IMG/VR virus record: IMGVR_UViG_3300027656_000033 | Coordinates: 1-30,404 of that record | Length of the DNA: 30,404 nt | Origin: a virus | Lineage: Duplodnaviria; Caudoviricetes | Strand: one strand, 5' to 3' | Part shown: positions 21,601 through 24,600 of the stretch, piece by piece | Numbering within the stretch: the stretch's first letter is position 1 | How the letters are laid out: each line of letters opens with the position of its first letter | Notes under the pieces: model-generated | What the model saw: the letters and a program-made list of their open reading frames with translations, nothing else | Told to the model about the DNA's origin: nothing | Databases searched by the model: none | Translations under genes and position numbers: made by a program

Positions 21601-24600
21601 CTTCTCTTGCAGATAAGCCTTTAGCCTAGAAACTTCTCCTTGTGCTCCAAGGGCTTTGTTCTTTGCTTCTGTGTCTGCTAATACTGTCTTATACTCTTTA
21701 TAACCCTCAATATTATTAGATTTAAATCCGCCAGCAGCCTTTGTTGCTCCACCAATAGTTAAACGCTCTTTTAGTTTGTCCCACTTTGCAAAAGAACTTG
21801 TTACTCTCGTACCATCTTTTTTAGCATCAATATCAAAAAGATATCTCATGCTTTGCTTTAAATGATCAGTAGTTGCACCTTTTTCACCTTCACGGCCAGT
21901 AAAGATTAATCCATCTGGGCCTTGAACTGTTTGGGTTGCCAAGTTCTTAAGGAATAGTGGTTTCTTTTTTCTCCAGGCTTCTCTTGTTTTTTCTGTAATC
22001 TCTGGGCTACGAACAAGGTCGTCCATGTATCTTTCAAGGTCAACTACGTGTGGAGGCATTGCCTTTGCTTGTGTTGGGCCATCTGGAATAACTCCAGCCA
22101 TGCGACCACTTACCCAGAAATCTTGATTAGCGTGTCCAGCCTGTCTTTGCTTTAACTGTTGCTCTTCAAACTTTTTAATAATCTCTGCTGCTGTTGCTTG
22201 TTTTGGTGTTGAAAGTTTGACTGCAGAATGAACTGCATGATATTGCGACCAGTCAACCTTAAGACCTTGTTCAAGTCTTTTAATCATTCCATTGTAGACA
22301 ACTTTTTCATCTTTATTTAATGAGAACCCCTTTACAGTTTGTCTTAGTTTTGGAAGAACTGTTTCAATCTCTGTTCGCATTGCAGTGTTATATTCTGCTG
22401 CGGACATACCCTTTGGAATTGGTAATGTTGATTCAGCAAAGAACCTTTTTGCCCCACCCTTTTCTCCCAACAGATTAATATTGGCCATCTTTTCCATTGA
22501 AAGCATATCTTTTGGTTTTGCATAATCTCTTCCAAGTTTCTGGGTGGCTGCCTGAAATACTCCCATGGTGCCAGCATCTGCAAGTTTCTTTCCAGATAGA
22601 TTACCTCCATGAAGGTCTCTATCTCCTCTTAGATTTGCTGCTACTAATTGTTTAAAATATTCATCCTTGCTAAACTTTCCACCCATATTCTTTTCAGCAA
22701 ATTTAGGATCAAATGGTGATTCAAGAACAATGATTTTTCTCTTTCCAGAAGGATCTAAAGGATCCCGCATTGTTCTAACTGTTTGCATTGGTGCATCAAG
22801 GCCGTGTGCTTGTCTTGCTATGATGGTTGCTCTTTGTTCTGCAAGAGCAGCCTTTTCGTCTACCATTGGCTTTACAAATACTTTATCTCCATTTGGCTTT
22901 TGATACATACCGCCAATACCAGGAACTGGGAAACTTCTTCCAGATGAATCTGCAATTTTTCTACCAAAATCAGTTGGGGTCATTGATCCAAATCTACTAT
23001 TTTTTGCTGCTTCTGCAACTTGCCTTAGTGTTAACTCTTGCTGCATTTTCTTTGTTACTGAATCAAAAGACTTTGGCATTCCTAAAAATAGTGGTTGAGA
23101 AGAAGATTGAGATTTTCTATATGCATCAATCTGTGGTTTAATCCAAGGATACTTGTCCAAGTTTCTTTGACGTTGTTCAGCACGTTTTGCATCTTGTGCT
23201 TTTCTAATTGATTCTAATTGAGGAGAAAGCGTTCTTGATACCTGTGGCAACTTTCCAGCCATATGTCCTGGAACACTATCGGTAAATATTGCCTTAAGAA
23301 GTCCATGATGCTTTTCAGTTAACTTTGCTGGAATAACTGCTTCACCTGGAGCAAGCATTGCTGGTTGAATATCTCCAGCACCCTTTGGTCCTGGAACTGT
23401 TAGAACTCCGTCTTTATACTTTCTTACTTTTAGTCCAGCCTTGGCTGCATTTGCTCCTGCTTTGCCACCTGTAAAAAGTCCAGGGCTTGATGCTGCAAGA
23501 GTTCTTGCTTGGGATGCTGCTGTCTGATAAGCCCTTCCAAGTGATTCTACGGATGCTCTTTCTACTCCAAATACCTGAATAAGTTTTTGATGAGCACCGT
23601 GAAGTGCATTAGACTGTACTGTATTTTCAAGTTGATCTTGAGTTAAATAGTCAAACCCTGAACCAAGTAACTTAGTCTGCCCATTTAGTTTAGCAATTCC
23701 ACCACGAAGCATTGCAAAGAATTTGATTACGTTTGCAACACCGTTAGCAAGCAAACCAAATGTCATAAGAACTACTGGGCCTATTCCGCCAAGTACTGCA
23801 AGCATGATGGTTACAAACTTCTTTGTTCCATCACTAAGATTATTGAACTTCTCCATTAACCCGCCAAAGAATTTAACTACTGGAGTAAGGGCTTCTAGGA
23901 ATGCCTTTCCTAAAGGCATTATTTCTACTTTAAACTTTTCAATTGCTGCCTGGAATTTTACTCCAACAGCATCTTCAACCTTTCCTAATTCTCGCTCAGA
24001 CAGGATTGCAAGATCTTGAACAGATGCTCCAGCAAGTGCCAATGTTCTGCTTGCTTGTGATCCATCTGCTGTTATATTCTGAAATAAAGTTGATAGACGA
24101 GCAAACTGGAACTTGCCAAACATCTGCTCAATTGCTCTTGCACGATTAAGTGGATCAAGAGTATCAAGTGCTTGTGCAAAACCAATAACAGTATTCTTTA
24201 GATTTCCAGCATTCTGTTCAACAATTCCTTGTACGTTAATACCCATATCAGCAAGCATTGCTGATGCTTTCTTGGTTGGGTTAATTAGTGCTGCAAGACC
24301 AGACTTGAGTGCGTTGGCACCTTCTGATGCATTAATTCCACCTTCCTTCATTGCTGTAAGGAAGAATGCAAGATCTTCTACAGAACCACCAAGTTGCTTA
24401 ACAACTGGTGCTGCTTTAGGAATAGCAATTGTTAAATCTTCAATAGAAAGGACTGTCTGGTTTTCTACTGCGTTAAGGAAATCAATTTTCTTTGCAAGGT
24501 CTTCTGCTGCGATGCCAAAAGAGTTAGTCAATGATATTGTTGTTTCAAGTGCTTGCTGTTGATCAACTTGACCAAGAACTGCTAACTTAGTTGCTGTCTT

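Follow-up and report, generated by a model that had tools for sequence, protein, structure and literature searches.

A predicted atypical kinase within the tape measure protein of an uncultured, freshwater Stanwilliamsviridae-like actinophage

The stretch of DNA analysed here in full (the window; 30,404 bases) is a linear virus record of ~28% completeness whose minus strand carries all long genes, namely a tail module followed by genes for helicase, primase, SSB and DnaE. Adaptor, major tail, chaperone and minor tail genes are arranged in the same order as in the Streptomyces phages Gilson and LilMartin, both Stanwilliamsviridae. The stretch was present in 20 runs, all of which (20/20) were freshwater or lake metagenomes; RNA runs contained parts of the tape measure gene as contigs only. 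WhiB, described as an actinophage marker in the available text of PMC10914622, was found in the record of one relative (G002, whose version of the kinase described below is 96% identical) and in 8/8 near-complete records among the 25 searched. The window phage is an uncultured freshwater Stanwilliamsviridae-like actinophage from a lake and, given the origin of the runs and the presence of WhiB in relatives, its host is probably a lake actinobacterium. At window positions 25500-26590 (minus strand) we observed two tail-chaperone ORFs, each matching phrog_10504, where the 236-aa ORF corresponds to two chaperone genes in the Gilson annotation, an unusual arrangement for a frameshifted chaperone pair.

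The ORF at 15670-25470 (minus strand, as are all features below) encodes a tape measure protein (TMP) of 3266 aa without cysteine. It is a true TMP, as shown by a match to the TP901-type core PF10145 (aa 261-452, 24115-24690; E 1e-26), by TMP PHROGs and by the tail-gene synteny with Gilson and LilMartin, and its N-terminal part shares ~28-30% identity with Streptomyces phage TMPs. The core lies in a conserved helical part (aa 1-678). A first strongly hydrophobic segment at ~aa 552-590 (23701-23817), of which Gilson and LilMartin have one too, forms the N-terminal wall of what we call the cargo bay, and a 65-residue motif of the type G-x-x-x-V-P-G...G-D...P-A-M-L-x-P-G-E-x-V, termed fence motif, begins at aa 679 (to ~745; 23236-23436). 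It is followed by an atypical kinase-fold module (aa 821-1090, 22201-23010), a second cargo module (aa 1165-1485, 21016-21978), a strongly basic helical stretch with 26% K+R (aa 1486-1645, 20536-21015) and a second hydrophobic cluster (~aa 1650-1714, 20329-20523) that forms the C-terminal wall, such that the bay comprises ~1050 residues in the window; at the same position, Gilson and LilMartin have a linker of roughly 150 aa and no kinase. Further downstream, hydrophobicity marks a third hydrophobic pair (~aa 1898-1945, 19636-19779), and a second fence copy begins at aa 3168 near the C-terminus (15766-15969, end approximate). The fusion of kinase and TMP is not an assembly artefact, because independent contigs match it without differences: a 2268-bp contig from another study covers 21632-23899 with zero differences, linking the TMP core, fence motif, kinase and start of the second module, and the kinase domain on a separate contig, L173, is 100% identical to that of the window.

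The initial annotation of this locus had pointed to a series of kinase motifs inside the TMP, and we recovered each of them in frame: GIGGMY at aa 851 (22903-22920), VFVK at 864, LAEQ at 876, GLDAP at 890, IIVLESPF at 913, GDRDLHGGNL at 949 (22597-22626) and LADAG at 963. The segment indeed departs from the Ala-rich helical pattern, with 9% Ala as compared to ~15% in the helical TMP parts. An AlphaFold model of aa 821-1090, with 41 aligned sequences as input, yielded a pLDDT of 91.9 and a pTM of 0.90 and contained seven helices past the DxG motif, equivalent to a full helical C-lobe. Upon matching this model with VIA-align against 48,161 PDB representatives (50 rows listed), all of the matches listed (50/50) were kinase-fold chains or complexes containing one. 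The top match was CotH (PDB 5jda; Z 12.0, rmsd 4.0, 217 aligned), next came CtkA (3akj; Z 10.3), HipA (10.1) and PI4KIIα (4pla; 10.0), and further matches included MavQ (7m7a; Z 9.8), HipT (9.1) and Vps34 (8.7). The nearest named clusters in a language-model atlas were LepB_N, HipA_2 and PI3_PI4_kinase at 0.92. Viral structure matches included large phage proteins with ADP-ribosyltransferase, portal-fused or PI3K/PI4K-domain annotations, so that this kinase group also has a place in other multidomain proteins of phages. As the model is confident, the matches listed are kinases only and the catalytic columns are among the most conserved, the kinase motifs exceed what is expected by chance. Hence, aa 821-1090 is a predicted atypical kinase of the CotH/CtkA/HipA group, and the HipA/CtkA/PI3-4-kinase-like fold that had been suggested is upheld by the model.

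Sequence profiles gave a different picture. Profile searches of Pfam and PHROGs returned 0 families matching the kinase domain; HipA_C and HipA_2 profiles matched 0/41 alignment members at E up to 1; the PI3/PI4 kinase profile PF00454 matched 1/41 members at E 0.008, with no match above cut-off; and the LepB_N profile weakly matched one relative, L010 (E 8.6e-4, 19.4 bits vs a cut-off of 25). Pfam likewise gave no match to the CotH profile PF08757, and the context is that of a phage tail, not a spore coat, while PDB sequence searches with the single protein and two alignments produced chance matches only. As the profiles miss it, the kinase domain constitutes a separate sequence family; membership of the HipA or PI3_PI4 families, as initially proposed, was not supported at the sequence level, and the best fold match was CotH.

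The catalytic residues of the module are strongly conserved. Our library search yielded 166 clusters (50% identity) at E up to 0.001, with 150 listed, mostly proteins of 2000-4400 aa, and the conservation set consisted of 137 near-full domains from the best 150 of the 166 clusters after 13 partial ones were dropped. Relatives were selected for resembling the query, a choice biased towards conservation, and four of the 137 rows were gapped across the N-lobe start. With motif order and secondary structure as the basis for assigning residue roles, the beta3 Lys867 and the alphaC Glu878 (22837-22872; on a strand and a helix in the model) were found in 133/137 and 135/137 relatives, respectively. 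In the catalytic loop D950-x-D952-L-x-x-x-N957 and the metal-binding D965-x-G (22570-22626), D952 was kept in 136/137, N957 in 137/137 and D965 in 137/137. All five residues, which the initial annotation had singled out, occurred together in 132/137 relatives, and they are among the 17 columns conserved to at least 97%, against a column median of 53%. Of the originally described D952-x-H954-xx-N957 loop, the near-invariant D952 and N957 stand, whereas H954 does not, as it was present in 4/137 relatives only (alternatives: Ser 55, Gln 29, Gly 23, Ala 15). Given this rarity of His, the family loop reads D-K-D-L-x-x-x-N, and D-x-H-x-x-N was ruled out as a family signature.

The Gly-rich loop G844-x-S846-F-P-x-x-G-x-G-G854-x-Y (22903-22941) was also well kept in the alignment, with G844 in 133/137, S846 in 132/137 and G854 in 133/137 relatives. 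HipA and HipT autophosphorylate a Ser at this place next to the Gly loop, according to the available part of PMC8262856, and we hypothesize a similar switch in which Ser846 would be a candidate autophosphorylation site; of the features by which that part of the paper defines Hip kinases, the Gly loop, the catalytic and Mg-binding motifs and the adjoining Ser are present in the module. The module is under purifying selection: its dN/dS amounted to 0.25, 0.12 and 0.16 against L002, L003 and L004, as compared to 0.03-0.06 for the TMP core and 0.28-0.36 for the C-terminal helical ruler in the same three relatives. Cys was absent from 138 kinase domains, and 240/260 long TMPs were also without any Cys; DnaE, primase and helicase contain Cys and the major tail protein does not. 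Although kin are not independent, this fits a module under TMP constraints, and it fits life in a virion.

We found the kinase module to be optional and exchanged between phages. Among the best 80 of 151 loci fetched by the TMP core alone, a set that was not dereplicated, the kinase was present in 32, absent in 40 (35 of them complete frames) and could not be scored in 8 that were too short, so that homologous TMPs with and without the domain both occur, a comparison that the initial annotation had put forward. The 112-kb complete record G009 contained the kinase nowhere. Across 147 TMPs with both core and kinase, the identities of the two correlated weakly (Spearman 0.33), the core and kinase trees shared 29/144 splits, and 28/57 strong kinase-tree splits clashed with strong core-tree splits (FastTree support of at least 0.95). 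The window kinase, for example, is 62% identical to that of L126 at a core identity of 41%, and 40% identical to that of L070 at a core identity of 75%.

In metagenomes, the kinase domain lay within frames of at least 1268 aa at 80/80 loci, 74/80 with TMP core or fence motif; 371 viral-contig stretches matched the module, and the core was detected in 117/120 viral-contig frames carrying it. No core was detected in 48/159 proteins with a kinase domain, most of which look truncated; P0015, P0020, P0097, P0121 and P0139 could be divergent TMPs or other carriers. A search for stand-alone forms of 130-844 aa gave no clear case, as its 13 real matches came mostly from contigs <3 kb and are read as TMP fragments; the weak stand-alone matches P0162-P0165 were found to be unrelated. 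An annotated phage collection, searched with two family members, contained no cultured carrier. The GTDB genome scan used two short patterns and hence tests the absence from cellular genomes weakly; its one match (L170, E 8e-5) was rejected as the opposite strand of an unrelated gene. We also observed that two stretches each in P0005, P0015 and P0066 match the kinase query, where the extra one may be a partial further copy, and that the TMP frame of L127 (6017-11386) ends at 1790 aa, shortly past the kinase, which could mean that this TMP is broken or split, or that the assembly is wrong here.

The fenced cargo bay has several interchangeable modules, of which the kinase is one. Relatives contain up to five fence copies per TMP and, in 133 full kinase carriers with a fence, a copy was located at most 130 aa upstream of the kinase in 73, at most 30 aa downstream in 44 and at both places in 39, while the window kinase has none directly behind it. 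The motif matches Gordonia phage TMPs in 73 records, and its copies in Gilson and LilMartin flank C-terminal domains that, as read from the sequence, are hydrolase-like. As the fence brackets peptidoglycan hydrolases acting outside the membrane, fenced cargo need not be cytoplasmic. Pfam searches of relatives (14 proteins, 44 segments) identified HAD phosphatase, OmpA, M23, NlpC/P60, CHAP and LysM domains in some and a weak APH/ABC1 kinase match in some, with most of the 44 segments belonging to no family. The C-terminal fenced bays of L163 (13886-18697), L072 (10612-13179), L133 (13589-14485), P0135 and P0141 hold OmpA-like, weak APH/ABC1 kinase, CHAP plus LysM, NlpC/P60 or M23 domains, and the envelope domains at these places suggest that an outer bay exists separately from the one with the kinase. 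HAD phosphatase domains co-occur with the kinase in P0092 (1458-1591), P0147 (1642-1775) and P0152 (436-562), where the two may possibly form a kinase/phosphatase pair.

Relative to the kinase, the second cargo module (aa 1165-1485) is C-terminal in some TMPs and N-terminal in L093, L102 and L113; L077-L080 have it without a kinase. Its His-Me-finger-like motif comprises a His, an Asn and a His-Pro (H1309, N1342 and H1383-P1384) that are invariant in 39 aligned sequences, and alignment and model display a strand-His, strand-Asp, helix-Asn pattern. A His-Me finger nuclease is our motif-level guess, which structure matching left unconfirmed: the model (pLDDT 84) corresponded to no solved fold, its best matches being unrelated helical proteins at Z 4.5, and its one viral fold match was another TMP. 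Other His...Asn patterns lie in kinase-less or pre-kinase bay modules, at ~aa 900-940 of the L067 TMP and ~aa 740-860 in L047, L083, L088 and L010, one of them with DRGH, as in non-specific endonucleases.

We propose, at roughly even confidence, that the kinase is carried within the tail and that its targets are host proteins, which it phosphorylates after ejection of the TMP into the cell membrane. A folded domain of such size should not fit in the tail lumen beside several TMP chains, and we therefore infer that the module is unfolded there. The available texts of PMC7824862 and PMC13277306 describe the TMP as extended within the tail and ejected into the envelope. Upon ejection, the hydrophobic segments would insert into the membrane with the cargo loop facing the cytoplasm, whereupon the kinase would refold, bind host ATP and Mg, and phosphorylate Ser/Thr targets ahead of any phage gene expression, the purpose most plausibly being, by analogy to T7K and JSS1_004, to weaken host defence or alter host physiology. 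The anti-defence or translation-arrest role suggested in the initial annotation would likewise be by analogy, to T7 gp0.7. A HipA-like self-phosphorylation of Ser846 would act as an off switch, and the fence motif would delimit the modules and perhaps also be where they are released. The bay would be cytoplasmic if the C-terminal part is outside, as implied by the hydrolases of relatives, and the second cluster crosses the membrane an odd number of times; such an orientation is in agreement with the 26% K+R stretch that precedes this cluster, yet the topology derives from counting weak hydrophobic peaks, is uncertain and could be wrong. Only few kinase copies per virion would be delivered, which counts against this proposal. 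More tentatively, and with less than even confidence, we suggest that the TMP of this widespread lineage of freshwater actinophages may be a polymorphic protein-injection cassette, in which fenced, recombining modules in cytoplasmic and outer bays (atypical kinase, phosphatase-like HAD domain, nuclease-like and wall-acting domains) would be released at infection, and the kinase would rewire or disarm the host before phage expression. If true, this would make it the first phage kinase delivered with the virion to do so ahead of any phage gene being read.

Other sites and substrates of action have to be considered. The kinase may act on phage proteins or in the producer cell, either during tail assembly or, upon excision at the fences, in a late role such as superinfection exclusion, given that TMPs are processed during assembly in lambda and T5, that fence copies lie on both sides in 39/133 relatives as for an excisable unit, and that the best fold match, CotH, is a spore-coat protein kinase. 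We nevertheless consider this rather unlikely: with about half of the related TMPs lacking the kinase, it does not qualify as a core factor of assembly, the rapid exchange fits a conflict with the host, its Cys-free domain fits virion life, and a late cytoplasmic enzyme would not need a fusion to the TMP. A lipid or small-molecule kinase, tethered by the TMP at the membrane, could instead phosphorylate phosphatidylinositol-type lipids, which Actinobacteria contain, or envelope precursors where injection takes place, and thereby ease DNA entry. The fold matches include PI4KIIα at Z 10.0, MavQ at 9.8 and Vps34 at 8.7, with lipid kinases reaching to within ~2 Z of the best protein kinase, LepB_N is among the nearest atlas families and has the sub-cut-off match in L010 (E 8.6e-4), and viral fold matches bear PI3K/PI4K annotation; however, the best three fold matches are protein kinases, and the His of the PI3/4K-type D-x-H loop is mostly missing. 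Together with the conserved Ser by the Gly loop, which resembles the Hip autophosphorylation site described in the available part of PMC8262856, this makes a lipid kinase unlikely.

The kinase may also be delivered but have the cell wall or surface proteins as its targets, beyond the cytoplasmic membrane. CotH and Fam20C kinases work outside the cytosol, and related TMPs contain M23, NlpC/P60, CHAP/LysM and OmpA-like envelope domains, but these are located in the C-terminal bay in P0141, P0135, L133, L072 and L163, whereas the kinase is nearly always found in the N-terminal one, and there is little ATP outside the cell, rendering this possibility quite improbable. That the domain is dead and retained only to fill ruler length, in line with the variation at H954 and the dispensability of the module, is scarcely credible in view of the five near-invariant catalytic residues (against the 53% median) and the dN/dS of 0.12-0.25.

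Within the available full-text literature, outside subscription journals, we found no report of an atypical kinase inside a TMP; precedents exist singly, as atypical kinases, as kinases in injected polyvalent proteins and as enzyme-bearing TMPs. The earlier notion of peptidoglycan hydrolases as the TMP cargo overlooks the TMP-fused RNA polymerase of P23-45 (available text of PMC10770324). Known phage anti-defence kinases need transcription first; a kinase already present in the tail could be active as the DNA enters, which is when restriction-type defences strike. In phages of probably abundant lake actinobacteria the module is common, and the cargo bay represents a natural site of insertion where ~1000 residues of foreign protein are tolerated.

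Compared with known kinases, the module shares its two-lobed fold with CotH, CtkA, HipA/HipT (4pu3, 7ab3), PI4KIIα and MavQ across the 267-residue model (Z 9-12), including the Lys-Glu pair, the [DN]xD...N loop and DxG, but it differs in its 9-16% identity to them, the lack of a profile match and its embedding in a virion structural protein. Whereas Hip kinases are stand-alone genes with an adjacent antitoxin, the module is internal to the TMP and flanked by tail-chaperone and minor-tail genes. T7 and JSS1 kinases disarm defences, as stated in the available texts of PMC13645617 and PMC12345140, and T7 gp0.7 and JSS1_004 resemble the window kinase in being phage kinases with a proposed action on the host as infection begins; they are early genes expressed after DNA entry, however, while the window kinase would be pre-made in the tail. 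Polyvalent proteins delivered with the virion also include kinases (Kinase-PolyVal; Iyer et al. 2017, PMC5512222, as far as available) and likewise combine several unrelated effector-like domains on one polypeptide. The Kinase-PolyVal is devoid of the C-terminal subdomain, in contrast to the full helical C-lobe of our model, and 'tape measure' is absent from the available main text of that paper.

Among scaffolds, the Tme/Sle1 effectors of actinobacterial contractile injection systems similarly consist of a TMP-like scaffold with exchangeable domains, but they belong to bacterial nanomachines and carry C-terminal modules, and 'kinase' is absent from the available text (PMC13277306). The TMP gp96 of Thermus phage P23-45 is shown in the available part of PMC10770324 to have an N-terminal part with an active RNA polymerase and to be full-size in virions. 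Full-size packaging and function inside the cell are thus possible for an enzyme located in the N-terminal third of a TMP. Like the window TMP, gp96 is a giant siphophage protein whose N-terminal-third enzyme is found in some relatives only; the window TMP differs by its kinase fold and its swappable modules between hydrophobic segments, and packaging and activity, demonstrated for gp96, are predicted here. Cultured counterparts are the TMPs of Gilson and LilMartin, Streptomyces relatives whose empty bays offer a direct test of whether a siphophage tail can deliver proteins. They share the core (~29% identical), gene order, hydrophobic segments and fence motif with the window TMP, but measure ~2100 aa as compared to its 3266 aa and have their C-terminal hydrolase-like domains fenced.
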